From IMG/VR virus record IMGVR_UViG_3300045988_118513: a stretch of 46,064 bases of DNA, one strand, 5' to 3'. Made by a program: the position numbers and the translations under genes. Positions 8,032 to 45,549 of the stretch are shown piece after piece. The notes under the pieces were generated by a model. It was not told where the DNA came from. It did not search any database and worked only from the letters and a program-made list of their open reading frames with translations. Within the stretch, counting starts at the first letter, position 1, and every line of letters starts with the position of its first letter. Origin of the DNA: a virus.

Positions 8032-8439
8032 ATGACACAGGAGTCCTACGCAGTCACCGCACACACGAACGACCCCACCGCTGCAAACCTCATCCTCGCA
8101 GCAGTGATAGACGAGGCCCGCCGCACAGGCGCACAAGTCAACATCGGTGGGAGAGTACCCGCCCCAAACGGGAGCATCGTCAACGTCAAAGCCGCGCAGG
8201 GTGACCAACTCGAAGACGCGGCCAACATGTTCATCACATGGGCGGAAGCCGCCGAAAAACCCAAACTCATGCACTCTCCGGCCGAGGTGGCAGCCATGCT
8301 CGGCGTATCCGCCCGCACGCTAGGAGAGTGGAGGTTCACCGGGGCCGGTCCCGCGTTCGTAAAGGTGGGGAGCATCGTCCGCTACCCGCACGACGCACTC
8401 ACGGACTGGATGCAGGCGAATCAGCAGACGGTCGCCTAA
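8032..8439 (+). CDS. HTH DNA-binding protein, excisionase/MerR-like C-terminal domain
   Basis: Frame 7915..8439 trimmed to ATG 8032 (AGGAG RBS). The C-terminus SPAEVAAMLGVSARTLGEWRFTGAGPAFVKVGSIVRYPHDALTDWM matches the excisionase-family HTH pattern. Confidence 0.65.
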   Translation: MTQESYAVTAHTNDPTAANLILAAVIDEARRTGAQVNIGGRVPAPNGSIVNVKAAQGDQLEDAANMFITWAEAAEKPKLMHSPAEVAAMLGVSARTLGEWRFTGAGPAFVKVGSIVRYPHDALTDWMQANQQTVA

Positions 8440-8895
8440 ATGCAAGGAAGCCCGCCCCAGACTAGCCTAAGCGCTTTGCGGCGAGTGTGAGAAACCGTCC
8501 AACGGTTCGCCTGGCGGGGCAAACCTGTCAGATGCGCTTGTAATTGGCCTGTCCAGTGCGGGCTTCCCACACAGAACGTTCAACAGAGAAAACAGACAAA
8601 CCAGGGGGGCATGTCAGTGCCTTGTTGTAACAGGCATGAGTGTAGCACTCCATGCGCGTCGTGCGCAACGTCTTGGCCACAACAAGTCCTTCGTCACTGC
8701 CAGGATTGGGGGGAGAGCAAGAATGTTCTCACCCTGGCGGGGCGGGTTGTAAACCAACTCCAATCAGCTCAGATGCACGATTAGCGGATCACTTGCCGGT
8801 TTTCTTGACGGTCGTGTCGGGTTGCAAATTACCTCCGCCCCACCTCAGACGCGCGCCCGACCGGCGCGCAGACAAACAAGAAAGGAATAGTCAGA

Positions 8896-9255
8896 ATGAC
8901 AACAGCAACGATCACCCGCGAACAGCTCAACGAGGCCATCAACGAGTTCGCAAACAAGATCATGGATGCCCTTGGAGCCGCCGTCACAGACGAGGCAGAG
9001 ACGGAGCCTGAACTGGCCGACACTTACTTCAAGGTGATTGACACTGACGACGAGGAGCTCGTGGTGGACGCTGCCAACATCCCCTGCGGCACGCTGGTGA
9101 CGCGAGGAGTGATTGAGTACTTCCGCTACAGCTTGGGAGAGCAGGACAGTAGCTGCTCGTGGATGTGCTACAACGGAAGGCGGCTTACCCCCGAGGAGTT
9201 CGCGGCAGAAATGCGCGCCGCCTCCCGTACTCCCCGCATCGCCCACTGGGGCTGA
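8896..9255 (+). CDS. Hypothetical protein, paralogue family B member 1
   Basis: RBS aaaggaa. N-terminal helix plus central motif NIPCGTLV. Family assigned by eye alignment. Confidence 0.7.
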   Translation: MTTATITREQLNEAINEFANKIMDALGAAVTDEAETEPELADTYFKVIDTDDEELVVDAANIPCGTLVTRGVIEYFRYSLGEQDSSCSWMCYNGRRLTPEEFAAEMRAASRTPRIAHWG

Positions 9256-9264
9256 CCGGGAAGG

Positions 9265-9603
9265 ATGGGTAGCGTAATGGCAGAACCGAGCGGCCATAAC
9301 AGCGGCATGTACCTCACCGCCCGGCTTTTCAGCCAGACGGGCGCCCCAAAAGCGCCGCCGAACGCAGTCACCATCAATGCTGCAGGCATCCCCATCACGG
9401 TTGACCTGTCCACCCTCCCGCCCGGCACGCTCGTTGACAGCTACGCGACGGGAGAGCTTTTTAAGCTCGCGTACGACAGTTGGGTGGCCATGAGGGAACC
9501 TAACGCAGAGTACACGGACGCGGATGTTGCCGCGCACGTTCGCCTCGGATGGGACGCCGACTTGGAGCGGACAGACTTCAACCTCATTCACGTGGGCGAA
9601 TAG
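9265..9603 (+). CDS. Hypothetical protein, family B member 2
   Basis: Motif DLSTLPPGTLV and C-terminal LIHVGE. An alternative ATG lies at 9277. Confidence 0.65.
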   Translation: MGSVMAEPSGHNSGMYLTARLFSQTGAPKAPPNAVTINAAGIPITVDLSTLPPGTLVDSYATGELFKLAYDSWVAMREPNAEYTDADVAAHVRLGWDADLERTDFNLIHVGE

Positions 9604-9682
9604 CCTGCCCCCCGGCGCATGTTTTCTGGCGGAAACCACGCGCCCACACACAGATTAGTTCAATTGGAAGGAAAACAGACAC

Positions 9683-9883
9683 ATGGCATGGATGCTACTC
9701 AGCGTCGGCCTCGCAATCTTCATCGCAGGACTGACGACCGGCCTCATCCTCAAGGAAATCATCGAATGGCACTACGATGCGGGCGGATGGCTTGGCAACC
9801 TGTTCAACATCGTCTGCCTGGCCCTCATCGGCTACCCCGGCGCATGGCTCACGTTCACCCACATCACGGGGGTGGGACTGTGA
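9683..9883 (+). CDS. Small integral membrane protein (66 aa, two hydrophobic helices)
   Basis: Helices MAWMLLSVGLAIFIAGLTTGLIL and NLFNIVCLALIGYPGAWL. RBS ggaagga. Confidence 0.7.
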   Translation: MAWMLLSVGLAIFIAGLTTGLILKEIIEWHYDAGGWLGNLFNIVCLALIGYPGAWLTFTHITGVGL

Positions 9884-10095
9884 TCGACCGCGTCACCGCA
9901 AACAACATCATCCTCCTGGCAAACAAGTACCAGGGCGACATCGTCAACCAGGTCACGCCCGGAGGCGTCGTCCCTCGCATCGTGTTCGGCCACCGCGACA
10001 ACACAGTCAACATCGGAGACCTCATCGGGAACACGGACCAGGGTGGAATCATCGTCCACCGCGAAGGCGCTTACGAGTGGGAGGTGATCGCATGA
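9880..10095 (+). CDS. Hypothetical protein (71 aa, GTG start in a GTGA overlap)
   Basis: Distal part of ORF-track frame 9619..10095. The upstream part of that frame overlaps the membrane-protein gene and looks non-coding (Arg/His/Pro-rich). Confidence 0.55.
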   Translation: MIDRVTANNIILLANKYQGDIVNQVTPGGVVPRIVFGHRDNTVNIGDLIGNTDQGGIIVHREGAYEWEVIA

Positions 10096-10397
10096 CCATT
10101 CACGGGCTTCTCGCGAGCGCGGCGACTGCGCCGCTCGTGCGCATCATCCGCAATCGCACAATGGACACCGTTCTCCAACGCGAAGGCGATGACCCTACAT
10201 GGACGGTCAAGACCAAGAATCTTGACCTGATCCGCGCGCTGGATGAGGTGTGCGCGCAAGGGCGAGGCATTGAACTGTGCCACACGCATGAGCTGGGTGT
10301 CGTGAAGGCCGCAGAGTACGCGGTTGACGATACTCTCCTCACGTCCATTATGGCCGGGCTGGACGACAATCCGACTAGCCCTCCGGCTGCGGCCTGA
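10092..10397 (+). CDS. Hypothetical protein (101 aa, ATGA overlap)
   Basis: Distal part of frame 9777..10397 starting at MTIHGLLAS. The upstream part is low-complexity shadow. Confidence 0.6.
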   Translation: MTIHGLLASAATAPLVRIIRNRTMDTVLQREGDDPTWTVKTKNLDLIRALDEVCAQGRGIELCHTHELGVVKAAEYAVDDTLLTSIMAGLDDNPTSPPAAA

Positions 10398-10481
10398 CAG
10401 GCCGTTAGGGGCGCGTCTAGGGGCCTTAACTGGCTTGTCCTGGGCGCGCCCCTAACCTATTACCGTTTAGGAGAAAACAAA

Positions 10482-10829
10482 ATGAGCGACGACAAGTACC
10501 TGCAAGCAATCAACGAGGCTCAACGCCTCATCACCACGCTACTCAACGACCCTGAGCACGGCAACCTCACATTCAAGGGCATGGGCGGCCTCGATGACCT
10601 GACCATCACAGGCCCGGAAAAGCTGAACAACCTCTCATCGGGAGCAGTACTCAGCATTGACGACGACGAATGGTTAGCACTTAGTCGCCAAATGGGCAAG
10701 CCGCGACAGTGGCAATGCTACTTAGAGGGGCGGCGAATGGCGAGCAAGGAACTATACATCCACGCCCTCGACAACGCAGACGAACTGTATTACATCCACG
10801 ACGGATACACCGTGGGCGCGGACCTCTAA
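10482..10829 (+). CDS. Hypothetical protein, family B member 3
   Basis: RBS aggaga. Motif LNNLSSGAVL and C-terminal YYIHDG. Confidence 0.7.
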   Translation: MSDDKYLQAINEAQRLITTLLNDPEHGNLTFKGMGGLDDLTITGPEKLNNLSSGAVLSIDDDEWLALSRQMGKPRQWQCYLEGRRMASKELYIHALDNADELYYIHDGYTVGADL

Positions 10830-10845
10830 GGAAGGATGAACACTT

Positions 10846-11184
10846 ATGACAAGCATCGAAACCTACCAGGAGCGCATCACCACTATTAAGGCAAGCGTTG
10901 AGGCCCTCAAGGGCGACAAGCCGCTCATCATCAACAACCTGCCAGGAAGGGCACATCTCGTCGTAAATGAATGGGATGACTTTGACTTCCCGGACGGGAC
11001 CGTCATCGCCGGGGACGGGGATCATGTATACCTGCGAGTCCCCCACGGGCTTACCTTCTGGGTGACGTCCAGTCGTGCCGATATTGAAATGGTCCGCTTC
11101 GGCCTCGGCAAGCTCTACAACCACCTGCGCGAGCGAGCGGCGGCGGGCGAACAGTTCCGTATCGTCTACCAGCCGCCCCAGTAA
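10846..11184 (+). CDS. Hypothetical protein, family B member 4
   Basis: N-terminal helix ETYQERITTIKASVEAL and motif FDFPDGTVI. Confidence 0.7.
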   Translation: MTSIETYQERITTIKASVEALKGDKPLIINNLPGRAHLVVNEWDDFDFPDGTVIAGDGDHVYLRVPHGLTFWVTSSRADIEMVRFGLGKLYNHLRERAAAGEQFRIVYQPPQ

Positions 11185-11196
11185 CGGAGGTTTAGC

Positions 11197-11568
11197 GTGA
11201 ACAAAGACATTCCCCAGGCAATCGCCTGCGAAACAATCCTCCAGAGCATCAGCGGGGCTCGCAAGGCCCTGCACGATGCAGCGAACCCTCCAGCGGACAC
11301 AATCAGCATCACCATTCCCGGCCTCGACAGGCCAATCACCGGAGAGCGCAGCCTGCGGCGACTTCCTCCCGGCACAACGATCCACGTCGCCAAGCATGCG
11401 CCAGTGTTGGGCGCAGTGTACGTCCGAGCGTCATCTAGCCGCCCACACCGCTGGACGCGACACGATGGGATACAGGTTACGGGGGTAGATGTGTTCGCAT
11501 CAATCCTCGACGCAATGCGATATGACGGCGTGATCACCCTCCTGTCGTACGGGCTGGACCCACTGTAA
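11197..11568 (+). CDS. Hypothetical protein, family B member 5 (closest paralogue of 14072..14464)
   Basis: GTG start. KALHDAANPP...ITGERSLRRLPPGTTI...DGVITLLSYG aligns along its length with member 13. Confidence 0.75.
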   Translation: MNKDIPQAIACETILQSISGARKALHDAANPPADTISITIPGLDRPITGERSLRRLPPGTTIHVAKHAPVLGAVYVRASSSRPHRWTRHDGIQVTGVDVFASILDAMRYDGVITLLSYGLDPL

Positions 11569-11589
11569 GCAGCCAGAAAGGCAACCGAA

Positions 11590-11895
11590 ATGGATATCAC
11601 GAAAGAAACCCTGATCGAACACATCGAAAACCTGTTCAACAACATTGACGCAGGCGAGCCAACGGAAAGCACGGTCGAACTCACCGCCCTTGGCGCGGAA
11701 ATCAAGCTCAACCTGTCAACCCTGGCATACGGCGCGATTATCCTCCTCGACGGCACCACGTGGTTCAAGGAGGACAGCGACATGTGGACCACGAACGACG
11801 GAGCCGGGATTAGCCAGCTAGAGCTTGCACAAAGTATTCGCGCCGCCAACCCCGGCGACGCCGTATTCCTCTACAACGGCGAGGTTTACAGGTGA
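11590..11895 (+). CDS. Hypothetical protein, family B member 6
   Basis: Motif LSTLAYGAIILLDG and C-terminal FLYNGEV. Confidence 0.7.
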   Translation: MDITKETLIEHIENLFNNIDAGEPTESTVELTALGAEIKLNLSTLAYGAIILLDGTTWFKEDSDMWTTNDGAGISQLELAQSIRAANPGDAVFLYNGEVYR

Positions 11896-12158
11896 CAGAG
11901 CCAATCAAGCTCGACACCCACTACGACTGCACGGCCAGTCATCACATCACGGAACTGCGCGGCCCCGACCATCTTGCCAGCCTCATGCCCGGCACAATCA
12001 TCCTCATGAACGGCTGGGAATACATGCGCCTAACCGGCAATAGAGGGTGGGTGCACATCAACGGAGTAGTCCGGTCCCACGAGGAAACATGGGACCAGAT
12101 TACTGGCCGCAAGCTGGCGGGGTGGAAGATCAGCCTCCTCCACGTCGGCGCAGCATAA
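11892..12158 (+). CDS. Hypothetical protein, family B member 7
   Basis: GTG start overlapping the upstream stop. Motif LASLMPGTIIL and C-terminal SLLHVG. Confidence 0.65.
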   Translation: MTEPIKLDTHYDCTASHHITELRGPDHLASLMPGTIILMNGWEYMRLTGNRGWVHINGVVRSHEETWDQITGRKLAGWKISLLHVGAA

Positions 12159-12179
12159 ACACTTAGAAAGGAAACAAGT

Positions 12180-12536
12180 GTGCAAACCCTAACTGAAACA
12201 CTCAACCGCTACAACAACGCGGACGACGCGCTCCATGAGGCAATGCAGCTGGTCGAACGGCTCGAACTGGAAACTACCCACATCCTCAATCGCAACACGG
12301 AACCAATCACCGTCCCCATCAGCGGGGATACGGTTCGCGAGATTAAAACCCCAGGTGACCTTAGGGGCCTCACTGAGGGGACCGTAATCAGCATTGGGGG
12401 CATCGAATACATGCGAACAAGCTACGCGTATGGCCCGTGGGTCGACTTTCTCGGCAACAAGCGGTCGCACGTCTACGTGTTTCGCTGCATGCTCGATCAC
12501 GTGGACGAGTGCAAGATCGTCCATGAGGGAAACTGA
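12180..12536 (+). CDS. Hypothetical protein, family B member 8
   Basis: GTG start. Motif TPGDLRGLTEGTVI and C-terminal KIVHEGN. Confidence 0.7.
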   Translation: MQTLTETLNRYNNADDALHEAMQLVERLELETTHILNRNTEPITVPISGDTVREIKTPGDLRGLTEGTVISIGGIEYMRTSYAYGPWVDFLGNKRSHVYVFRCMLDHVDECKIVHEGN

Positions 12537-12549
12537 ACGGAGAACGGAC

Positions 12550-12921
12550 ATGACAACACACATCGTGGAAACCGACGCCGAGAAAGCAGCGCGCGCGGCA
12601 GCCAAAGTGGCGTATGAAAACATTCAAAAGGCGCGTCACGCCCTGTACGTAGCGCACAGAGACTGTTGCGCCCCCGTCCCCATCCCCGTAGTGGGAGGAG
12701 ACTATGTGACGCCATCCAATAGGCGCGACCTGGCACGCCTACTCAATGGCACCATACTCCACACGCCGAACGGCCTGTACGTCAAGCACTGGAAATGGTG
12801 GCGAGGCGAGTATGAGAAAATCTCCCACAAGGAAATGTGGGAACGCATTCTCGGCGCTTACGCAGACAGGCCACTCGACGACGACTTTCTTCTGACCCCA
12901 CCCGAGGAGGTAGCACCGTGA
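12550..12921 (+). CDS. Hypothetical protein, family B member 9
   Basis: Frame 12394..12921 trimmed to ATG 12550 (RBS acggagaa). Motif RRDLARLLNGTIL. Confidence 0.7.
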   Translation: MTTHIVETDAEKAARAAAKVAYENIQKARHALYVAHRDCCAPVPIPVVGGDYVTPSNRRDLARLLNGTILHTPNGLYVKHWKWWRGEYEKISHKEMWERILGAYADRPLDDDFLLTPPEEVAP

Positions 12922-13271
12922 ACCTGCAGGAGCAAGCCCAACACCTGAACAGTATTATCAAGTTCCACCAGAACCTCCTGCGTGAGGTCAGGTACGGGGG
13001 GCGCATCACCATCCCTATCCCGCGAGACGACGGAGGGGAGGATGTGCCAATTCGCACCCCACACGACCTTGCAGATCTCCCCATCGGGACGCGCATCGGC
13101 GTGTGGTGGCAAGAGCTCCGAGTCGTGCCGGGCGGCTTAGCCTACCACGGGCATGAGGAAATCGTGTACACGTTTGAGGGGTTTTGGGACGAGCTGATCG
13201 CATGCACAGCCTTCCCTCCCCGTGACGCAGCGGCCATGCCTCGCATCACGCACATGCCCGAACGCAACTAA
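12918..13271 (+). CDS. Hypothetical protein, family B member 10
   Basis: GTG start in a GTGA overlap. N-terminal QEQAQHLNSIIKFHQNLL and motif TPHDLADLPIGTRI. Confidence 0.7.
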   Translation: MNLQEQAQHLNSIIKFHQNLLREVRYGGRITIPIPRDDGGEDVPIRTPHDLADLPIGTRIGVWWQELRVVPGGLAYHGHEEIVYTFEGFWDELIACTAFPPRDAAAMPRITHMPERN

Positions 13272-13290
13272 CCCCCCGATAGGAGGAAAC

Positions 13291-13635
13291 ATGACAGAAA
13301 CCAATACGGCCCTCACGGAGGCCATCGCCAAGTGTGACGAGATCAAAGCCAGGCTGGAAACGCTACGAGAAATGAGCGAGCCTAAGACTGTTCTGCGGCT
13401 TGAATCCATCGCCCGCCCCGGCGATTATCGGGAGCTACAGTCGGCAGGCGATCTGAAGATTGCCACGCCTGGCACAGTCATTGTCGGGCCGCGCTATCGC
13501 TACTTCCGAACATGCGATCCGGCAAACCCCTGGGCCGACAAATATGGCAACCGGATATCAAATGCGATCCTGTGGAACACTCTCATCCGCGCAGTCGATA
13601 GCGGCGCAACATTCAAGTACCTTGTAGTCAACTAG
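13291..13635 (+). CDS. Hypothetical protein, family B member 11
   Basis: Frame 13222..13635 trimmed to ATG 13291 (AGGAGGA RBS). Motif SAGDLKIATPGTVI. Confidence 0.75.
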   Translation: MTETNTALTEAIAKCDEIKARLETLREMSEPKTVLRLESIARPGDYRELQSAGDLKIATPGTVIVGPRYRYFRTCDPANPWADKYGNRISNAILWNTLIRAVDSGATFKYLVVN

Positions 13636-13691
13636 GCCACTAACTGGAAGCTGGCAGACGTCGCAATAAGGTACACAGAACAGGAACAATC

Positions 13692-14060
13692 ATGGAAGAA
13701 GACAACCTCAACAGTATCATCTAGGATATTCTGGAGGAAGCGGCGAACCGTATCCGCGAAGCGCTCGCCGAGAACATGGGGGCCAATAGTGAGGTGACTC
13801 GAAGCCTCACCAAGTTCGACGCCCAAACCGCAGACGGGGACGTGATTGTGCTCGACGCCGAGACAGAGCGAGCGGGCACGCTCATAGTCCTGCTTGGCAA
13901 CGAATGGGTGTGTAAGTACCCTACAGGCCGCTATGGCACCGAGTCGAAGCGGTGGGAATCGTGGGACGGGGAAGTCCGCACTGCGAGCGAGTTTGCCGAG
14001 ATGTGTCGCACCGCGCACACGAACGGCAACACCAACATCCTCATCCATAAAGGATACTGA
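13692..14060 (+). pseudogene. Family B member 12, interrupted by an in-frame TAG at 13722-13724 (the ORF track only reports 13776..14060)
   Basis: ATG 13692 has an AGGAA RBS. Translation reads MEEDNLNSII-TAG-DILEEAANRIREALAENMGANSE... in one frame. Member 10 has LNSIIK at the homologous place, so the TAG sits where it has AAG. ATG 13776 has no RBS. Confidence 0.55.
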
Positions 14061-14071
14061 GGGAGGCGAAC

Positions 14072-14464
14072 ATGGAACAGGATAGCCCTCAGCCCGTAGG
14101 GGCTGACGAGACATTCAGGAGAATGGGCGAAGCTTGCAAAGCGTTGTACGATGCCGCAAACCCGCCCGGCGAACAACTCCAAATCCCCATCCAGGGGATC
14201 GGTGAAACCCTCATCGGAGAGCGGGGACTAAGGAATCTCCCATACGGCACAATGTTGCGCGCAAGCTCCCCGTACCTGGTCGGGCCAAACCTGTATGTGC
14301 GCATCAAGGGCATTGGTAGTCGGCAGTGGGTAAACGGATATGGGCATACACTGTCCAGTCTTGATGTGTTCACAAACCTTGTGAACGAGGTCCGCTTTGA
14401 CGGCACTATCACAACCCTCACCTACGGGGCTCACACCATCGAAGAACTGCAGGCGAAACCGTAA
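14072..14464 (+). CDS. Hypothetical protein, family B member 13
   Basis: RBS gagggagg. Aligns with member 5 (KALYDAANPP...IGERGLRNLPYGTML...DGTITTLTYG). Confidence 0.75.
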   Translation: MEQDSPQPVGADETFRRMGEACKALYDAANPPGEQLQIPIQGIGETLIGERGLRNLPYGTMLRASSPYLVGPNLYVRIKGIGSRQWVNGYGHTLSSLDVFTNLVNEVRFDGTITTLTYGAHTIEELQAKP

Positions 14465-14473
14465 CACACACAT

Positions 14474-14564
14474 GGGGCGAGGCCCCGCGATAACCAGCAC
14501 CAACCAAACCCCACACCGGGGCAAGGAAGGCGCACGGCTATCGCGGGGCCTCGCCCCTTTTCTC
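14474..14564 (+). terminator. Perfect 19-bp inverted repeat (14474-14492 / 14539-14557) followed by TTTTCTC; the right arm alone also forms a compact terminator hairpin
   Basis: GGGGCGAGGCCCCGCGATA ... TATCGCGGGGCCTCGCCCC then tttt. The alternative fold is GGGGC-ctc-GCCCC plus a U-tract. It lies between block B and int. Confidence 0.6.
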
Positions 14565-14630
14565 ATGCCCGCAAAACAGGCAACGTCGTGCTACATTACA
14601 GGCAACACCCCCACGGAAAGGTCACACGTC

Positions 14631-15827
14631 ATGGCTAGGCGAGCGCTCCAACCAGGCGAACTCGGCAACATCACCACCACCAAAGTCAGCAAACAAGGCC
14701 GAGCCTGGACCGTCAACCCGGACGGCACCCACTGGCGGGCAAGCGTCCTCATCGGCCATTGCGGCGACACTCCCAAACGCATCCGCACAATCGCAACCAG
14801 CAAACGCCAAGCCGTAAGGCAATGCGAGGAACAAGCCAAACAACACATTGACGACGCGAAACGCGCGTCAGGCGTCATCACCGGAGCGTCCACGCCACGG
14901 GAAGTCTGGGACGCATACGCGCGGTCGCGTCGCCACCAGGCCCTCGCCCCGGCCACCAGGCGCAACTACGAGACCGCCATAGCCGACAGCCAACATGAAA
15001 ACCCGCACTGGTGGAACCTCCCCCTCAACGAAGCCATCACCGTATCAGCCCTCACCACGCTCTACGACGGGTACGTCGCCAAGCACGGGTGCGGGCGCGC
15101 TAGGACCAGCCTGCGGGCCGCGCTAGGCGTCGCCCTCAAGCTCGCATCCGACGCCATTAACCTGTCCCCATTCCACGCCACACGCCCCACAGACACGCCC
15201 ATCACAAACCCCGTCCGCGCACGACTGGACACTGACCGCATCCTCCCTCCCGAGGAAATGCGCGATCTCGTCACCGCGCTTGAACGGTACGACGCGAAAC
15301 GAATCCCCGAACGAGACGCAGTAGACGCTCTCGTCCTCCAAGCCCACCTTGGCCTGCGAGCGGGAGAGTTGTTCTCTCTCGCGTGGGGCAACATCGACCT
15401 CCGCGAGGGGACCGTGCGCGGCGTCGAATCCCGCAAGACCCACCGCACGTACCCAGATAAGACCCTGCCCGAATGGCAGGCCGACAGGCTGCGTGCCAGG
15501 GCCAAGAAAGCCACCCGCACAGGCAAGGACGTGCGCCTGTTCGACCGGGCACAAGCAACCATGTACCGCGAGTGCCGACTCCTCCTTAACAAGGTAGGCC
15601 ACCCAGGCCTGTCAATCCACGGCATCCGTAAATCCGTAGGCAGCATCGTCTTTGACACTTACGGGGCAAGGGCGGCGGCGGCGTGGCTCGCACACGCTAA
15701 CGTTCAGACCACTATCGCCTATTACGTGAAGCTCGACGGCGCAATGCCGGAAGGCCCCGTCGACCTGCTCAATCGTGGCGAACAGGAAAACAGGCAGCAA
15801 ACAGGCAATGCGCCGTCAGGCGAGTAG
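14631..15827 (+). CDS. int: Tyrosine integrase (398 aa)
   Basis: Frame 14397..15827 trimmed to ATG 14631 (RBS ggaaagg). The longer form would read through the terminator. Catalytic-type motifs: GLRAGELFSLAWGNIDL, HGIRKSVGS and AHANVQTTIAYY. Confidence 0.85.
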   Translation: MARRALQPGELGNITTTKVSKQGRAWTVNPDGTHWRASVLIGHCGDTPKRIRTIATSKRQAVRQCEEQAKQHIDDAKRASGVITGASTPREVWDAYARSRRHQALAPATRRNYETAIADSQHENPHWWNLPLNEAITVSALTTLYDGYVAKHGCGRARTSLRAALGVALKLASDAINLSPFHATRPTDTPITNPVRARLDTDRILPPEEMRDLVTALERYDAKRIPERDAVDALVLQAHLGLRAGELFSLAWGNIDLREGTVRGVESRKTHRTYPDKTLPEWQADRLRARAKKATRTGKDVRLFDRAQATMYRECRLLLNKVGHPGLSIHGIRKSVGSIVFDTYGARAAAAWLAHANVQTTIAYYVKLDGAMPEGPVDLLNRGEQENRQQTGNAPSGE

Positions 15828-15952
15828 ATCAAACCGTTGGGACTGTGCGGGAAACTGGCCTACAAATCATAGTACATCTGGTATTCTCACCTGTGGTTAA
15901 GTCCCGTGCTGAGTGTTGCGAGGTGAGAGCTGATTAGGCGCACGATGGCAAC

Positions 15953-16002
15953 AAAAAAGCCCCCCGCCCCTAACTGCCGGTCAAGCAGCTGGGAGCGGGG
16001 GG
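15953..16002 (-). terminator. Intrinsic terminator for the leftward early operon
   Basis: The minus strand reads CCCCCCGC...GCGGGGGG (8-bp GC stem, 15960-15967/15995-16002) followed by TTTTTT (15953-15958). Confidence 0.6.
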
Positions 16003-16049
16003 AAGCGGGGGAACGCAGAATTAACTGGCACCATTGGAGGCAACAGAGC

Positions 16050-16316
16050 CTAATCCACGCCCCCTGTTCGAGTTGCATAAACCCGAGAATGTGCTAAGCG
16101 ACCAAGCGCTGTTAGCGCCTGCAATTTACAGGCACCCAGCTCGCCGCGCAGGAGACGCAAGCATGCGACCGTATTGTCAAGCGAGTCGTGGCCGCACATG
16201 CGAGCCGACACGACAAGCAACAGGTCAGCCGCCACAATCGCCTCCCTATACTCCTCAACCTCGGCACGCAGGCCACGTTCAATCACGTTGAGACGATCAT
16301 GCACCGGGTCAGTCAT
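16050..16316 (-). CDS. Hypothetical protein (88 aa)
   Basis: ORF track. The start overlaps the upstream stop by 4 nt. It is the last gene before the terminator. Confidence 0.5.
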   Translation of the reverse strand: MTDPVHDRLNVIERGLRAEVEEYREAIVAADLLLVVSARMCGHDSLDNTVACLRLLRGELGACKLQALTALGRLAHSRVYATRTGGVD

Positions 16317-16696
16317 AGGGTCACCTCCAAAGGATAATCGTCCAGGCCGTCATCCAGTGGGCGGCCGTTTAGGAACTCGCACATCTTCCTCACACCGCGA
16401 AACTCCCAACGGCGCACAGTCATCAGCGGCATGCCGAGCGCAGCAGCAACTTCCTCCTGTGTCGCCATGAGGATTAGCCGGTTGCCAATCACGTTTCGCT
16501 CGTCCTGGTCAAGCGCCCAGTAGGCGCGCTGAGCGTCCGCGCACATGGCCATCATGTCACCGCCCTCAGACGGGTCGCGCTTAGCCCTCGGCATGCCATC
16601 CTCAATGTGCGTCTCGGATAGGCTCACGCCCCACCCGCGCTGCTTGTCGAACGCAAGCGGTAGCAGTCTTACGATCATTCCGGGGTCGTATCGCAT
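16313..16696 (-). CDS. DNA-binding protein with sigma-70 region-4-like HTH
   Basis: ATQEEVAAALGMPLMTVRRWEFRGVRKMCEFL resembles ECF-sigma region 4. A GGGGG..AGGAAA RBS is present. Confidence 0.5.
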   Translation of the reverse strand: MRYDPGMIVRLLPLAFDKQRGWGVSLSETHIEDGMPRAKRDPSEGGDMMAMCADAQRAYWALDQDERNVIGNRLILMATQEEVAAALGMPLMTVRRWEFRGVRKMCEFLNGRPLDDGLDDYPLEVTL

Positions 16697-16708
16697 TTTC
16701 CTGACCCC

Positions 16709-17095
16709 CTATCCAAGTTCGTCCACGTCCGCGTCGAAAGCCCACGGAACCTCATGTTCGTGGTGCGCATAGTCGGGATAGGACTTGAACAGCATGTCAG
16801 AAAGGACGTTCACCATCCCCGCCTCTCCCGCGTTATTCCAAGCGCTAGCGACCGTCTGCGCTCGTTCCCAGGCAGTCAGGTACAGCCAGCCCATAACCTC
16901 CTCGCGAGGCACGCGAGAGCGGCGACAGAACCAGTCCATGCCCTTACGGAAAGCCCGCCACAACATAGGCACCTGGCCCGGTACGTCATCCGAAATGGCG
17001 TCCAAGTCAGGCGGCTCCACTGCGAGCAGTTCCCGCACATGGTCAGCCGTCACAGGGTATTCGTCGTTCAGCGAGGGATCAAACCAGTCACGCAT
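16709..17095 (-). CDS. Hypothetical protein (128 aa)
   Basis: Strong RBS GGAAGGGGG 6 nt upstream of the ATG. No domain recognised. Confidence 0.65.
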   Translation of the reverse strand: MRDWFDPSLNDEYPVTADHVRELLAVEPPDLDAISDDVPGQVPMLWRAFRKGMDWFCRRSRVPREEVMGWLYLTAWERAQTVASAWNNAGEAGMVNVLSDMLFKSYPDYAHHEHEVPWAFDADVDELG

Positions 17096-17697
17096 GCCGC
17101 ACCCCCTTCCGTGAGGAGACTATTAACGTCCGTGCCGCGAGGGACCGTCACCCTCACGGCCTGCTGCAGGCTATCCGTTACGGCGTCGGCCAGTCGGTCG
17201 CCCGCCTCGTCCCCGTCAGCCCACACGTACACGCGCTCGCACCCTGAGAATGCGAGGCCCATCCATGGCTTCCAGTAGGACGCGCCCGGCATGCCACACG
17301 CGGACAGGCCACACTCAACGAGACTCAGCGTGTCAATCTCACCCTCAGCAATGTGGGCAACCCTCGCCCCGGCCACACCATTCAGGTTGTAGATATTGAA
17401 CCGCTCACCAGAACGGCTTGTGTATTTCGGCTCCCCGCCGTCAAGGCGACGGAACCTAATCCCCGTCGTCACCCCATCCATATTCATGTGGGGGATAACC
17501 AGGCACCCCTGGTAGGGTTCGTCGCCCGGATACGGGTCACCAGCGTAGCCGAGTCGCGCGGCTTCGCATGTTGCGACGCTGAGACCCCGGCCCTGCAGAT
17601 ACGTTCTGGCCCCATCGGCCTGCTGCTGGTAGTGTGCGGCCCTCGCCGCCAGTTCCGCCACCATCGAGTCCGGTAGCGGTTGCATAACGTTTGGCAT
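17068..17697 (-). CDS. DnaG-like primase, catalytic/TOPRIM part (209 aa)
   Basis: Motifs YLQGRGLSVATCEAARLGYA, LVIPHMNMDGVTTGIRFRRL and AEGEIDTLS...VWADGDEAG (TOPRIM E and DxD). AGGAGG lies 11 nt upstream of the ATG. Confidence 0.75.
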   Translation of the reverse strand: MPNVMQPLPDSMVAELAARAAHYQQQADGARTYLQGRGLSVATCEAARLGYAGDPYPGDEPYQGCLVIPHMNMDGVTTGIRFRRLDGGEPKYTSRSGERFNIYNLNGVAGARVAHIAEGEIDTLSLVECGLSACGMPGASYWKPWMGLAFSGCERVYVWADGDEAGDRLADAVTDSLQQAVRVTVPRGTDVNSLLTEGGAACVTGLIPR

Positions 17698-17929
17698 CTA
17701 TGAAAGACCCTCCTGTTTCCTCCATGATCCAAGAAAGCCAGTCGCCGCCCCGCCCGCACCCGAAACAGTGCCACAGGCCCTTACCCCAGTCGATGCTGAG
17801 AGAGGCGTTGACGTCCCCGTGAAACGGACAGATAATCTTTCTTGAACCATGAGGGGCGTCCACATTGAAGTGGTCCAGCACTGCTTTCAGGCGACCGCCA
17901 TCGCCTGTCCGCGTGTTCCATTCACTCAT
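17537..17929 (-). CDS. DnaG-like primase, CHC2 zinc-finger part (130-aa ORF; its last roughly 50 aa look out of frame)
   Basis: CPFHGDVNASLSI...WHCFGCGRGGD. The ORF overlaps the TOPRIM ORF by 161 nt in a frame offset by 1. Confidence 0.7.
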   Translation of the reverse strand: MSEWNTRTGDGGRLKAVLDHFNVDAPHGSRKIICPFHGDVNASLSIDWGKGLWHCFGCGRGGDWLSWIMEETGGSFIDAKRYATATGLDGGGTGGEGRTLPAAGRWGQNVSAGPGSQRRNMRSRATRLRW

Positions 17930-17978
17930 ATGGACGCCCCCTGTCTGTGTGTTGAATTGGTTCCGTGTAAAGCAGCCC

Positions 17979-18344
17979 CTAGAGGCGCTTCATGAGGCGC
18001 GCGAAATCCTCCAATGTGAGGACCGCGTACGCCTGACCTGTCGGCTTCTGCCTGGCCTTGACGACTGCCACGCCGAACGTGTCCGACTGTGGGATGCCAC
18101 GGTTGTGCGCGTACAGTGCAGACTCGTCCGCCGCCTCGCGCAGGAACTGAGGGAGGCTCACCTGCCCCCGGTTCTTGGCTTCCAGTACGATGCGGGCGTC
18201 CGTGTTCGGGGTGCGCACAACGAGGTCGCCCTCGTCCACGGCCCCCAACTGTCGGAGTGGTTCGACGTCGAGCTGGTTGTCTCGCAGATACTTGCGGACG
18301 TCAGTCTCCCACGCCGTGCCCTTGGCTTTGTTCCTGTTCGTCAT
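17979..18344 (-). CDS. PD-(D/E)xK nuclease, Holliday-junction-resolvase-like
   Basis: Frame 17979..18500 trimmed to MTNRNKAKGTAWETDVRKYL...DEGDLVV...LEAKN (G-x-x-E, D, ExK pattern). An alternative ATG lies at 18362. Confidence 0.6.
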   Translation of the reverse strand: MTNRNKAKGTAWETDVRKYLRDNQLDVEPLRQLGAVDEGDLVVRTPNTDARIVLEAKNRGQVSLPQFLREAADESALYAHNRGIPQSDTFGVAVVKARQKPTGQAYAVLTLEDFARLMKRL

Positions 18345-18447
18345 CGCTTGTCCCACTTCCATTCGTCCCACAGGCCGCGTCCCATCCAGCCGAGAATGAC
18401 GCCGATAATCGCGTACTCTGCGAGGAGGATCATTGTTGATACTGGCA

Positions 18448-18765
18448 TCAGTCGCAATCCCCCCGCATGCACGCTCGGCACCCGAGGCACCGGGCCTCAT
18501 GATCCACTGTCTCCGCGCCCGTCATGTCTTGCACGTCCCGGTCGATCATGCCGACCACAGCGGACAGCTCACGCGCCCCACGCTTCAGGTCCGCCACGTG
18601 CTTTTCCGTGACAGTGAGGCGTAGTCCGTGGTCGAGTCCGGTCATCTCGGTTCGCGCCCACGCTTTCCGCACGTCCCGCAGGTCGGCTAGTATGCGCGTC
18701 AGAACAAGCCCTGTTGCGGCGGGACCCGCCAGAGCTACCACAAGGGCAATCGTTGCTACACTCAT
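18448..18765 (-). CDS. Membrane-anchored hypothetical protein (105 aa)
   Basis: GGAGGAAA RBS. N-terminal helix VATIALVVALAGPAATGLVL. Confidence 0.65.
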   Translation of the reverse strand: MSVATIALVVALAGPAATGLVLTRILADLRDVRKAWARTEMTGLDHGLRLTVTEKHVADLKRGARELSAVVGMIDRDVQDMTGAETVDHEARCLGCRACMRGDCD

Positions 18766-18780
18766 TTTCGTTTCCTCCGA

Positions 18781-18945
18781 TCAGCGCCAGCCGCGCTTCC
18801 GACTAAACCTGACCGCAGCAGTCTCAAGCCGATCAAGCCAGCGCTCCCACCAATCTCCTACCACCTCGAAAAGCAGGCACAGCAAGGGCATCACAAAGTA
18901 GAGCACCACTGATGCGATAATCATCGCGAGCAGAAAAGTCAACAT
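18781..18945 (-). CDS. Small membrane protein (54 aa; below the ORF-track cut-off)
   Basis: Hand translation gives MLTFLLAMIIASVVLYFVMPLLCLLFEVVGDWWERWLDRLETAAVRFSRKRGWR. RBS GGAAGGAAG. Confidence 0.5.
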   Translation of the reverse strand: MLTFLLAMIIASVVLYFVMPLLCLLFEVVGDWWERWLDRLETAAVRFSRKRGWR

Positions 18946-18969
18946 AGACTCACACTTCCTTCCATCATG

Positions 18970-19773
18970 TCACCCGCGCGCCCCGAACCAGGTTCGCGCA
19001 GGGTCACACGTCAAGCCGACATAACGCGACGCAGACGGGTCACAAAAACCATCCCTCTGCTTCACGCACGCGACATAGAACTCCTTGTTAATCGGGTCCA
19101 GTGCGACCGTCAGAGTCAACTCAGGCTTCTCCGACAAGCCATTCTTAATCTGGTCCCTCGATGGGGGCTTCCACGGATTCGACTTCGCATCCAGCGTCTT
19201 ATCCGACGCATGATGCAAAACGATCACCGTCGCCCCCGTAGTACGCGCAAACGCAATCACATCCTGCATGACCCCCATCTGCGCCTCATAATCCGACTCG
19301 CACCCGGCAAAATCCATGAGGTTATCGAATACGACGACCTTCGGGTATTCGTTGTGGAGCATGACGTAAGCGTTAAGCTCATCCTCCACCTGTTCCCACG
19401 TGATCGGGGAACCAAACGACAGCTCAATAGACAGAGACGCCGCCGCCTGTTCGATCTGCGCTCGCCCGTTCGTCGTGCTCATCATGGCTTCAACCTCCTT
19501 GGAGGTCATGCCAGTTGCGATACTTGCTAACCGTACGCCCGCCGTAAACGGGGCCATGTCCGCCGAAAAGTACAGTGTCGGCAAACCCATTGCCGCAACC
19601 CAGAACAGGGCAAACCCTGACTTCTGCGACCCGGAACGGCCAGCAACCATCACCACCTGCCCCCGCCTCGGGGTCACGCCCGCCTCATACAAATCCTTGA
19701 AAGCGGGAACATGGGGGAGTGGCTGCTGGCCGGACACGCCCTTACGGAGGGACTGGAATACATTCAGTCCCAC
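18970..19773 (-). CDS. RecA/DnaB-like replicative ATPase (267 aa)
   Basis: Walker A-like VMVAGRSGSQKSGF and Walker B-like VVVFDNLMDF. GTG start. The size and motifs are typical of actinophage DnaB-like helicases. Confidence 0.65.
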   Translation of the reverse strand: MGLNVFQSLRKGVSGQQPLPHVPAFKDLYEAGVTPRRGQVVMVAGRSGSQKSGFALFWVAAMGLPTLYFSADMAPFTAGVRLASIATGMTSKEVEAMMSTTNGRAQIEQAAASLSIELSFGSPITWEQVEDELNAYVMLHNEYPKVVVFDNLMDFAGCESDYEAQMGVMQDVIAFARTTGATVIVLHHASDKTLDAKSNPWKPPSRDQIKNGLSEKPELTLTVALDPINKEFYVACVKQRDGFCDPSASRYVGLTCDPARTWFGARG

Positions 19774-45009: not shown

Positions 45010-45549
45010 CTACGCAGACCGCAAACGCTCACGGTAACCATCCAACACACTCACCGACGCCGGAACCACACCAGACTCATCAGGCCGCAACTCAATACCA
45101 GCACGACGACGCTCCGACTCCGACATCCCCAACTTCCCCAACTCCATGTAAATCGTCGCCAAACGCTGCGACGACGGATCGCGCAACAGAGGAGGACGAT
45201 CACGAGTAAACCCCCGAGCCTCACGCTCCGACGGCTTCAACGACGCAGCCTCAGCATCCCAACCAGCACGCAACGCACGAGCACGCACAGCCTCATCCTG
45301 CTGCCGCTTATACGCCGACAAATCCTCACACAGAGAGAACGCCATCTCCCAGTCCGTCTGCTGAAACCAAAACGACTGACCAGACTTCCTAATAGCGTCA
45401 TACATGCGCTTCGCCGTCGGATGCCACTTAGCATCCGCCTTACGCGGCGAAACCCCCATCAACACGCCACCAGTCACATGCTGCGTCCTCGACGGACGCT
45501 GATCCACCAACTCATCCCGACGCGCAGGAACAGGACCACTACGAGCCAT
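45010..45549 (-). CDS. terS: Terminase small subunit (179 aa)
   Basis: The N-terminus MARSGPVPARRDE is typical of the P27-like/actinophage small terminase pattern. It lies between the HNH gene and the terL region. Confidence 0.65.
   Translation of the reverse strand: MARSGPVPARRDELVDQRPSRTQHVTGGVLMGVSPRKADAKWHPTAKRMYDAIRKSGQSFWFQQTDWEMAFSLCEDLSAYKRQQDEAVRARALRAGWDAEAASLKPSEREARGFTRDRPPLLRDPSSQRLATIYMELGKLGMSESERRRAGIELRPDESGVVPASVSVLDGYRERLRSA

Follow-up and report, generated by a model that had tools for sequence, protein, structure and literature searches.

What a temperate phage gains from a run of small, related genes beside its integrase is the question raised by positions 8896 to 14464 of the IMG/VR virus record IMGVR_UViG_3300045988_118513, a stretch of 46,064 nt that was analysed whole and is referred to below as the window. 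An initial annotation, made from the sequence alone, had described the run as 13 homologous + strand genes next to the integrase. The features of the locus, with the family genes named m01 to m13 in order, are the following.

8032..8439, + strand: HTH gene of excisionase type (135 aa), immediately upstream of the array locus (PHROG 66 'excisionase and transcriptional regulator', E 4e-9)
8440..8670, no strand given: noncoding, ultra-conserved element that separates the xis-like gene from m01
8896..9255, + strand: m01, 119 aa; leave-one-out E 2.8e-8; pairs with m12; dN/dS 0.45-1.0
9265..9603, + strand: m02, 112 aa; leave-one-out E 5.8e-6; hhalign to the other family members 96.7%
9683..10397, + strand: variable slot with three non-family ORFs, 9683-9883 (66 aa), 9880-10095 (71 aa) and 10092-10397 (101 aa)
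10482..10829, + strand: m03, 115 aa; leave-one-out E 1.7e-7; linked to m08
10846..11184, + strand: m04, 112 aa; with m10 the weakest of the family; leave-one-out E 0.005, ahead of every other non-training ORF; with orthologues, hhalign gave 96.4%, E 1e-9
11197..11568, + strand: m05, 123 aa, GTG start; 36% identity to m13; leave-one-out E 3.6e-14
11590..11895, + strand: m06, 101 aa; leave-one-out E 1e-8; hhalign 95.6%
11892..12158, + strand: m07, 88 aa, GTG start; 4-nt overlap with m06; domain alone; leave-one-out E 3.5e-9; AlphaFold pLDDT 86
12180..12536, + strand: m08, 118 aa, GTG start; structure reference (AlphaFold pLDDT 94.2, pTM 0.80); 25 orthologues
12550..12921, + strand: m09, 123 aa; leave-one-out E 2.2e-8; hhalign 97.4%
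12918..13271, + strand: m10, 117 aa, GTG start; 4-nt overlap with m09; one of the two weakest members; leave-one-out E 0.024, still the top non-training ORF; hhalign 96.4%, E 1.4e-9
13291..13635, + strand: m11, 114 aa; link to m08 at 1e-8; leave-one-out E 4.3e-10; allele swapped relative to L001 (58% identity)
13692..14060, + strand: m12, interrupted by an in-frame TAG (13722-13724), 122 aa in relatives; leave-one-out E 1.2e-6
14072..14464, + strand: m13, 130 aa; pairs with m05; leave-one-out E 3.6e-7; only in the lineage of the window and L001
14474..14566, + strand: 22-nt inverted repeat (14474-14495 / 14536-14557), then TTTTCTC; terminator-like by inferred function
about 14631-15827, + strand: tyrosine integrase (PF00589 on the L001 orthologue; start codon set from the translation)
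15845..15890, no strand given: conserved block with the probable attP crossover, the junction lying just after ..AATCATAGTACATCTGGTAYTC

The 13 family ORFs were confirmed on the + strand, with the same starts as in the initial annotation. Each is preceded by a Shine-Dalgarno-like motif and has the codon GC pattern of coding sequence (GC3 0.64-0.77 > GC1 > GC2); the long - strand ORFs of the region have a different, non-coding-like pattern and were taken as shadows. Within the run, neighbouring family genes are separated by 9-21 nt or have a 4-nt overlap, except for a 56-nt gap before m12 and the interrupted stretch after m02. Together they amount to 4,521 nt, or 9.8% of the window, and their span to 12.1%, values that correct the earlier estimate of about 11% of the genome. 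A further correction concerns m12, in which a nonsense mutation (CAG->TAG) interrupts a frame that is intact, with CAG, in relatives. In the window, m12 is either a pseudogene or encodes a truncated 94-aa product from an ATG at 13776.

Homology among the products was assessed against a background of the 486 six-frame ORFs of the window. Direct phmmer links joined m05 to m13 (1e-23) and m08 to m11 (1e-8), with further links between m07 and m08, m03 and m08, and m01 and m12. Iterative HMM searches recruited exactly the 13 members and no other ORF. In leave-one-out HMM searches, each omitted member ranked directly behind the 12 training members and above the 473 other ORFs, with E values of 4e-14 to 6e-6 for 11 of the 13, the exceptions being m04 and m10. 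Profile-profile comparison by hhalign, with orthologues added, of five members (m04, m10, m02, m09 and m06), the two weakest among them, with the rest of the family gave 95.6-97.4% (E 1e-8 to 1e-11). All 13 genes are homologous members of one tandemly expanded family. As noticed at the outset, the alignment of m05 with m13 extends from end to end, and their identity is at the upper end of the 13-36% identity found among paralogues of the array. The three small genes that interrupt the run had been called unrelated, and none of them was recruited in the six-frame family searches; ORFs 9880-10095 and 10092-10397 gave no family HMM match (E > 0.5). ORF 9683-9883 is, by eye, hydrophobic and membrane-protein-like.

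Comparison with relatives showed that copy number varies from 9 to 14 with gene order conserved, and that cassettes are gained, lost and replaced by other alleles. Between phages that elsewhere show 94-100% identity, the swapped alleles of m05, m06 and m11 have a dS of 0.46-0.80. In L010, L011 and L013, the slot at 9683-10397 holds a short helix-less family member instead, and in P0182 the first 33 aa of the third interrupting ORF are found again, joined to an m03-like core. In the family, gene-wide dN/dS is for the most part 0.3-0.9, and highest in m01 (up to about 1), compared with 0.05-0.23 in conserved neighbours (HTH_17, g7617, integrase and replication genes); orthologues in more distant relatives are 41-80% identical for the family and mostly 82-96% for these neighbours. 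None of the 5-column alignment windows exceeds a dN/dS of 1 (highest value about 0.8), and the ratio falls to 0.2-0.3 at the conserved hairpin. The dN/dS analysis proposed earlier reveals fast evolution relative to the neighbours without any alignment window above 1; relaxed constraint and positive selection are both compatible with such values. Fast evolution is not confined to the array. The array is a birth-and-death multigene family whose 13 genes are tightly packed and include one with a nonsense mutation, and its variable copy number, swapped alleles and high dN/dS fit the conflict interface that had been suggested.

A near-neutral expansion, with duplicated accessory ORFs of little or no function hitch-hiking in a recombination hot spot, would agree with the high gene-wide dN/dS, most of all in m01, with the nonsense-mutated copy and with the frequent cassette loss. 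We nevertheless consider it very improbable, as ORFs are intact in relatives down to 41-60% identity, all 25 orthologues of m08 are exactly 118 aa long, the hairpin has a low dN/dS, cassette order is conserved, and ribosome-binding sites and the coding GC3 signature are found in all copies. Moreover, the paralogues are far older than the clade, yet retained.

Each family gene encodes one alpha/beta domain of ~65-75 aa, in most members preceded by a helix of ~35 aa. The order in AlphaFold models, of which those of m08 and m07 are listed above, is strand-strand-helix-strand-strand-strand-helix-strand. The three-part layout first described is real but not universal: the N-terminal helix is absent in m07 and short in m02, and the C-terminal h-h-H/Y-x-G ending occurs in nine of the 13 members. 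Only G67, in the G-T motif, and W87 (m08 numbering) are invariant in the 13-member alignment. Because conservation is limited to this Gly, this Trp and a hydrophobic core, and no set of polar residues is conserved, the domain is read as non-enzymatic, and it is probably a binding or adaptor module. Nine members are acidic (pI 4.0-5.7), and no signal peptide or membrane segment was seen by eye in the family proteins. Searches of Pfam, PHROG, NCBIfam and PADLOC returned no match, structural comparison covering the PDB and BFVD found no PDB fold match for the confident models, and no homology to known anti-defence, defence or toxin-immunity proteins was found. The label ORFan is apt insofar as the family has no annotated domain and no counterpart among solved structures; it is inapt insofar as the domain is not isolated, recurring as repeats in giant phage proteins and in other lineages.

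The family profile, searched against 1.84 billion representatives, yielded 26 matching proteins, 470-3,731 aa long, in each of which 2-8 stretches match (E 4e-14 to 8e-4). In the giant proteins, 1,100-3,700 aa long, a core module of ~65 aa is tandemly repeated 4-21 times. An HMM built from these repeats alone detected 4-21 copies in every protein of at least 470 aa and, when searched back on the window, its best 8 of 486 ORFs were all family members. Alignment of the family with the repeats by hhalign gave 94.6% (E 6.7e-8) over 59 columns, the whole domain; single repeats match weakly (single-domain E 1e-5 to 1), significance being reached only in summed and profile-profile scores. Judged by these profiles, the domain of the small genes is the repeat unit of the giant phage proteins. 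Effector domains are found on repeat proteins as well: NUDIX in P0127, NUDIX and ADPrib_exo_Tox in P0130, and ADPrib_exo_Tox in P0154, the ADP-ribosyltransferase domain being terminal in two repeat-bearing proteins. HExxH and P-loop motifs were noticed by eye in giant proteins.

All three giant-protein contexts examined place the gene in the head module, just downstream of the portal gene. P0130 is preceded by a 78-aa ORF and, before that, by a portal gene (phrog_776, E 2e-95); P0151 is found two genes downstream of Portal_Mu and ahead of a Mu-like protease; P0154 comes after terminase, portal+NUDIX and, directly, Phage_Mu_F, and is followed by an 86-aa ORF and an ADP_ribosyl_GH (ADP-ribosyl glycohydrolase) gene. 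The core domain also occurs solo or arrayed in other phage lineages, with arrays in two. In another temperate phage, P0205, with two repeats, is found among small + strand genes divergent from the lysogeny module (integrase, weak Peptidase_M78 match), a position read as a putative early operon. The giant-protein loci match the phage-type polyvalent proteins and MuF toxins of the literature, for which injection together with DNA has been proposed (PMC5512222, PMC5576092). The repeats could alternatively be pure structural spacers or packaging elements, which would weaken the inference of host-target binding.

The head-module position of all three giant proteins would also fit a reading in which the 13 proteins are themselves virion-associated, packaged in the head like T4 internal proteins or acting as chaperones or spacers for head contents, and the N-terminal helix could then serve as a targeting or oligomerisation element. 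This seems improbable to us. The head genes of this phage, namely terS (45013-45549), terL (42614-44389) and portal- and capsid-size ORFs at 38.5-42.6 kb (our own assignment), are on the strand opposite to the array and separated from it by no less than about 24 kb. In addition, copy-number variation of 9-14 and a dN/dS of 0.3-0.9 are rare for structural proteins, and neither m07 nor the helix-less members have an extension at the N-terminus.

Flanked by the excisionase-like gene on one side and the integrase on the other, the array belongs to a temperate Actinomyces phage. The L001 orthologue of the xis-like gene carries PF12728 HTH_17 (dN/dS <= 0.17). The noncoding element at 8440-8670, judged by eye in eight sequences, has ~95% identity or more along about 230 nt and is still highly conserved with three further relatives, whereas the flanking proteins are only about 50-94% identical. 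It has a closing stem (8446-8455 / 8558-8567) and no Rfam match, and an exact 23-mer of it occurs in 12 IMG/VR contigs, the cross-checked ones being of the same clade; it may serve the array as a leader, a regulator or an ncRNA. At the other end, the inverted repeat and T-run at 14474-14566 would terminate the array ahead of the integrase. Beyond the integrase, L005 and L010 change over to shared non-phage sequence, indicating a probable attP crossover in 15845-15890. The non-phage flank of L005 holds the 3' end of glnA, then uvrC and purT, and the 3' end of glnA in Actinomyces is where the phage integrates. The array thus lies at the int-adjacent prophage end, bracketed by hairpins, a position where prophage-expressed genes are found too.

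This position invites a moron-like explanation, in which the array is an insulated unit expressed in the lysogen that protects the host from superinfecting phages, for instance by binding or competing with repeat-bearing effectors injected by such phages, or that alters host physiology. Bracketing by the conserved upstream element and the downstream inverted repeat with T-run would suit an insulated unit. Since the domain is also present in head-module effectors of other phages, solo copies could be competitors or decoys, and immunity proteins in polymorphic-toxin loci are, as is generally known, typically tandem diverged small paralogues. We regard this explanation as possible but rather doubtful: the array follows, on the same strand, an excisionase-like gene that should be silent in the lysogen, and a promoter search at the array gave nothing convincing, promoter-like matches being at chance level. 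P0205, moreover, lies in what is read as an early lytic operon, and the relative L002, in which the integrase has been replaced, keeps all 13 genes, a weak argument given that L002 diverged very recently.

Tentatively, and with confidence somewhat short of even, we favour the array as a repertoire of diversified binding modules that would act in host takeover or anti-defence. Each paralogue would be a soluble, mostly acidic cytoplasmic binder with its own specificity, and the repertoire would be aimed at host proteins, most likely, as infection begins, those of defence or other targets of host takeover. Such timing would agree with the arrival of the module in head-packaged effectors of other phages, or from an early operon. 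The N-terminal helix would be an optional accessory, possibly for oligomerisation. About a tenth of the phage genome is taken up by the 13 fast-evolving copies; given that their domain is also repeated within giant toxin-bearing phage head proteins, they are probably target-binding modules in phage-host conflict.

Among known systems, SUKH/Imm immunity arrays consist of small, non-catalytic, strongly diverged paralogues that stand in tandem within a conflict locus, and they have the same layout as the window array, which differs in having no adjacent toxin gene. The family matches no Pfam model, Pfam being a collection that we take to include SUKH/Imm models and LPD families, and in this it differs from both. 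Clusters of anti-defence genes (anti-CRISPR and similar) with an associated HTH regulator usually consist of unrelated genes; they resemble the array in being small, mostly acidic, fast-turnover phage proteins beside an HTH gene, with content varying among close relatives, and differ in that the array consists of 13 paralogues without detected homology to known members. T4 IPI* and P1 DarA/DarB are head-packaged anti-restriction proteins and share with the giant repeat proteins the putative strategy of protein delivered with DNA, whereas the small window proteins have no sequence similarity to them and could share packaging only putatively. DarB is cited in PMC5512222. In contrast with MuF polymorphic toxins (Jamet et al. 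2017, PMC5576092), the 13 window proteins have no MuF domain, toxin domain or adjacent toxin and lie between xis and int, outside the packaging module; the giant repeat proteins, on the other hand, share the locus logic of those toxins, being located downstream of portal, in one case directly after a MuF gene, with two ending in ADP-ribosyltransferase and one of these, P0154, followed by the 86-aa ORF and the glycohydrolase gene. The LPDs of polyvalent proteins differ from the present domain, with its 4-21 tandem copies per protein and its 9-14-gene arrays, in that no comparable internal repeat is described in the portions of PMC5512222 used here. They resemble it in being small uncharacterised globular modules that occur both inside very large multi-effector phage proteins and stand-alone in phages, and several LPDs are known in solo form (Iyer et al. 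2017, PMC5512222).

All 13 small-protein ORFs listed in the initial annotation at 8896-14464 (m01-m13, plus strand) were recovered. Each is preceded by a Shine-Dalgarno-like motif and has the codon composition of a coding sequence (GC3 0.64-0.77 > GC1 > GC2), while the long antisense ORFs across the array follow a different pattern and were taken as shadows. Within the run, the genes are mostly separated by 9-21 nt or overlap by 4 nt, giving the array the appearance of a single operon. In m12 there is an in-frame TAG at 13722-13724, where the close relatives L001 and L004 carry CAG and encode an intact 122-aa protein. Judged from the sequence, this nonsense change has either made m12 a pseudogene recently or shortened its product to 94 aa.

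Homology between the 13 products was evaluated with the full set of 486 six-frame ORFs from the window as background. Searches with single sequences linked m05 to m13 (1e-23) and m08 to m11 (1e-8), with further links m07-m08, m03-m08 and m01-m12, and iterated profiles recruited precisely the 13 family ORFs and none besides. In a leave-one-out design, every omitted member ranked 13th of 486, next after the 12 training members and above the 473 other ORFs; m04 and m10 gave E values of 0.005 and 0.024, and the remaining 11 members lay between 4e-14 and 6e-6. When orthologues were added, hhalign matched m02, m04, m06, m09 and m10, which include the two weakest members, to the rest of the family with 95.6-97.4% probability. 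The proposal of the initial annotation that the array is one homologous family is thus confirmed, by profile-profile comparison as well as by rank. Only two residues are invariant in the family alignment: the Gly within P-x-G-T and, some 20 positions further on, a Trp.

The three ORFs that interrupt the run between m02 and m03 had been regarded as unrelated, consistent with our results: all three stayed outside the set gathered by the six-frame searches, and the second and third do not match the family HMM. The third was considered as a hidden family member and rejected (E 0.59). Its N-terminal 33 aa (10092-10190) are 61% identical to the N-terminus of the homologous protein P0182, the remainder of which is an m03-like family domain; on sequence grounds, this looks like a gene fusion or an N-terminal module swap inside the array.

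The window has the appearance of a complete actinophage genome of ~46 kb, with the structural genes on the minus strand and replication genes continuing on the same strand to ~16 kb (Pfam matches on L001 orthologues). The arm of small plus-strand genes runs from ~1.4 kb to the end of the integrase at 15827, and the operon-like array is situated between an excisionase-like gene and that integrase.

Main features of the window
8032-8439, plus strand: excisionase-like helix-turn-helix gene
8440-8670: noncoding element of ~230 nt, between the excisionase-like gene and m01
8896-14464, plus strand: array m01-m13, with the three interrupting ORFs at 9683-10397
10404-10456: 18-nt inverted repeat (89% complementary, 17-nt loop) between the third interrupting ORF and m03
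14631-15827, plus strand: tyrosine integrase
15845-15890: probable attP crossover, just downstream of the integrase gene
16316-16696, minus strand: gene for a 127-aa candidate phage regulator that has a sigma-70 region 4 helix-turn-helix; attP separates it from the integrase
42614-44389, minus strand: large terminase, at most 50% identical to Streptomyces phage terminases
44479-44563, minus strand: tRNA-Leu(CAA), between the two terminase genes
45013-45549, minus strand: small terminase
Among the structural genes, minus strand: 1,622-aa ORF of tape-measure size

None of the genes scanned was identified as a classical repressor. Positions 1-1000, where the start of the plus-strand arm meets the terminase end, form the lowest-GC stretch of the window (47% vs about 60%) and may hold the genome ends or an early promoter region.

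In the related loci L005 and L010, phage sequence ends just past the integrase gene and gives way to shared non-phage sequence. The flank of L005 (about 12480-19400) carries the 3' end of glnA followed by uvrC, purT and a yvcK-like gene, and L005 is itself a contig of an 'uncultured Actinomyces sp.' genome. We therefore conclude that this is a temperate phage of Actinomyces whose integration site is the 3' end of glnA. A near-identical relative (L002), on a 91-kb contig that is probably a two-copy concatemer, has three small minus-strand ORFs in place of the integrase (L002 13780-14760) and keeps all 13 family genes.

An AlphaFold model of m08, built from a 133-sequence family alignment, has a pLDDT of 94.2 and a pTM of 0.80. 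It predicts a 34-residue N-terminal helix followed by the order strand-strand-helix-strand-strand-strand-helix-strand. The model of m07, a member naturally devoid of the long helix, gives the same domain (pLDDT 86) with the same element order, both models being derived from family alignments. Foldseek searches of 350,542 PDB chains returned no match for either model (best E 0.9 for full m08 and 1.6 for helix-less m07; all TM-scores ≤0.33). Among all PDB sequences, the family profile ranked PsaE, an SH3-like barrel, first at E 0.16, and Foldseek found no SH3-like match with m08 or m07.

Annotation searches were likewise negative. No Pfam family was matched at E ≤ 1 by the ten members scanned (m01-m10), PHROGs and NCBIfam scans of members gave nothing credible, and none of the 13 members matched the PADLOC models of anti-phage defence proteins. 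Megablast of the region and tblastn of m05 found no match among 50,697 GenBank phages. Matches in BFVD are uncharacterised proteins of uncultured siphoviruses, several per virus, plus weak actinophage ORFans. One homologue, P0044, is labelled 'arginine repressor' in nr; this name is not supported, as ArgR is absent from the PDB-sequence profile search at E ≤ 10 and from the matches listed in both Foldseek searches of the PDB.

The initial annotation had described the family as an ORFan fold. This description does not hold, as the same domain is also the repeat of giant phage proteins. Run through filter-only HMMER against 1.84 billion representative proteins, the 13-member profile gave 89 matches, 26 of them 470-3,731 aa long and each containing 2-8 stretches that match the profile core (E 4e-14 to 8e-4). 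An HMM built from these stretches only (consensus ..SVEDLDALPVGTVVTDGDGSTYTKTEDGTW..) detects 4-21 copies per protein of at least 470 aa and, run against the 486 ORFs of the window, places family members in all of the first eight positions. The family and 28 of the repeats align in hhalign with 94.6% probability (E 6.7e-8) over 59 columns, which take in the complete domain down to its final helix and strand. With a single-repeat profile, nothing was found among 5.8 billion proteins at E ≤ 1e-5, because one repeat is too short. No Pfam family was matched by the repeat regions of ten large proteins, one giant protein (P0139) had no match in plasmid and phage records, and the only name attached to any giant protein is one 'NUDIX' label.

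Several giant proteins carry recognisable effector domains:

P0127: NUDIX
P0130: NUDIX and ADP-ribosyltransferase (ADPrib_exo_Tox)
P0154: ADP-ribosyltransferase (ADPrib_exo_Tox)

In other large proteins, HExxH and helicase P-loop motifs were recognised by eye. In each of the three contexts examined, the large-protein gene belongs to the head module and comes shortly after the portal gene; one of the three directly follows a separate Phage_Mu_F gene and stands ahead of an ADP-ribosyl glycohydrolase gene. The family domain accordingly serves, in multiple copies, as a building block of head-module proteins that bear effectors. For the small proteins of the array, a packaged or structural role is less likely than the binding function discussed below. 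In the phage that encodes P0154 (L029 3038-5677), the portal protein is fused to a NUDIX domain, with the MuF, P0154 and ADP-ribosyl glycohydrolase genes downstream. P0205, with two repeats, is encoded among small plus-strand genes divergent from the lysogeny module of another temperate actinophage (an integrase and a weak Peptidase_M78 match), a position that we read as an early operon.

Related loci were taken from ENA, IMG/VR and GTDB genomes. Cassette order is the same across these loci, and copy number, a point raised in the initial annotation, does vary between relatives, from 9 to 14.

Family members per array
Window, L001: 13
L005: 11
L008, L009, L011, L012: 9
L013: 12
L010: 14

The genes m12 and m13 are confined to the lineage of the window and L001; other lineages have additional m01-like and m07-like copies. 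Gene content of the m02-m03 slot differs between phages and in some includes a helix-less family member. More distant lineages carry 6-7 members in a prophage, downstream of an HTH_17 gene (L015, L016), or 3-5 members within 3.4 kb (L014, 47% GC). A profile search of 5.8 billion proteins yielded 212 small homologues; among the 120 listed, all are orthologous to five members and lie on 45-47-kb metagenome contigs.

Paralogues share 13-36% identity and orthologues 41-99%, indicating that most duplications are older than this phage clade. Between the window and L001, most cassettes are 94-100% identical, while m05 (73-74%), m06 (69%) and m11 (58%) are distinct alleles with dS values of 0.46-0.80. 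At the sequence level, this indicates that cassettes are exchanged by recombination. Gene-wide dN/dS is mostly 0.3-0.9 in the family (range 0.14-1.06), 0.22-0.41 in two upstream genes of uncharacterised function, and 0.05-0.23 in the excisionase-like gene, the conserved neighbour g7617, the integrase and replication genes (0.33 for one divergent integrase allele). Along the domain, it falls to 0.2-0.3 at the conserved hairpin and peaks at 0.7-0.8 in the strand that precedes and surrounds the D-L-x-x-L-P motif, just after G-T-V-I and after the Trp; no 5-column window of the domain alignment exceeds 1. These data describe one fast-evolving family of a new small domain with variable copy number. 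A near-neutral expansion of the array, to which the upper end of the gene-wide range might point, is less likely than the binder repertoire discussed below.

The noncoding element at 8440-8670 is clade-specific, with about 95% or more identity in 8 sequences and high conservation still in 11, far above the adjacent array genes and equal to or above the excisionase-like gene. It comprises a 10-bp closing stem (8446-8455 / 8558-8567) and a nearly invariant A/C-rich stretch (8569-8603) followed by a hairpin. RNAalifold finds the closing stem plausible, at a level of variation too low to show covariation. The element has no Rfam match and was ruled out as attP because the phage-host junction adjoins the integrase gene; a role as a regulatory leader or as a novel small RNA is conceivable. 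The inverted repeat at 10404-10456 may act as a terminator or attenuator within the array; consensus scans for promoters and terminators were at chance level overall. An integron-like array was rejected, with no attC-type or recurrent repeat family in spacers of mostly 9-21 nt or 4-nt overlaps. The same holds for a diversity-generating target: the longest direct repeat in 8400-14700 is only 31 nt at 71% identity, and no Pfam family of the reverse transcriptase kind was found on the genes of related loci.

Hairpins bracket the array, which is positioned at the end of the prophage. Both points are in line with the main alternative, which we consider clearly less probable: a unit expressed from the prophage that would shield the lysogen, perhaps through competition with effectors of other phages that bear the repeat. 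The formats in which the domain occurs and its evolutionary pattern favour a repertoire of host-protein binders serving anti-defence or host takeover, which our analysis suggests as the most likely function, at slightly less than even confidence. Conservation limited to structural residues suggests a non-catalytic binding or adaptor module. The domain would act at the onset of infection, judging by its formats: the giant proteins, whose genes neighbour the portal gene, are proposed to be injected along with the DNA, while P0205 lies in a putative early operon.

On a bolder and more tentative reading, an undescribed, widespread phage domain would occur in three formats: small proteins with one or two copies, tandem arrays of 9-14 genes, and effectors of the NUDIX or ADP-ribosyltransferase kind that are delivered from the capsid and fused to 4-21 repeats. 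The array would then be a repertoire of specific binders that exchanges cassettes. Each binder would neutralise its own component of host defence or, in the lysogen, an effector of a rival phage, with the ultra-conserved upstream element governing expression of the array.

The family connects small accessory genes of temperate phages with portal-adjacent giant effector proteins, proposed to be injected, which have been studied separately. Should the domain prove to be a programmable binding module, the array would be a natural inhibitor library against Actinomyces host or defence proteins, and the same domain would account for a large part of what is unannotated in the giant polyvalent proteins. 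The system lends itself to direct testing, since the proteins are small, predicted to be soluble and confidently modelled, and both an integrated prophage and the host genus have been identified. To our knowledge, multigene families this large are rare in 46-kb phages, and we know of no annotation of the family or the repeat, within the libraries searched or elsewhere.

Phage-type polyvalent proteins and MuF toxins have been proposed to be packed into the head and to reach the host together with the DNA (PMC5512222; PMC5576092). The giant repeat proteins resemble them in architecture and gene position, and the accessible text of both reports holds no description of the repeat. Unlike a MuF toxin/immunity pair, the array showed no toxin-like or MuF domain among the neighbours scanned (excisionase-like gene, three small ORFs and integrase). 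The family differs from LPD-type domains in that no described LPD model in Pfam was matched by the ten members or the ten repeat regions, but is like them in occurring both inside large multidomain phage proteins with effector domains and in solo forms. That polyvalent phage proteins and solo proteins have domains in common is an already known general theme; new are the domain itself and its amplification, as tandem repeats within one protein and as multigene arrays.
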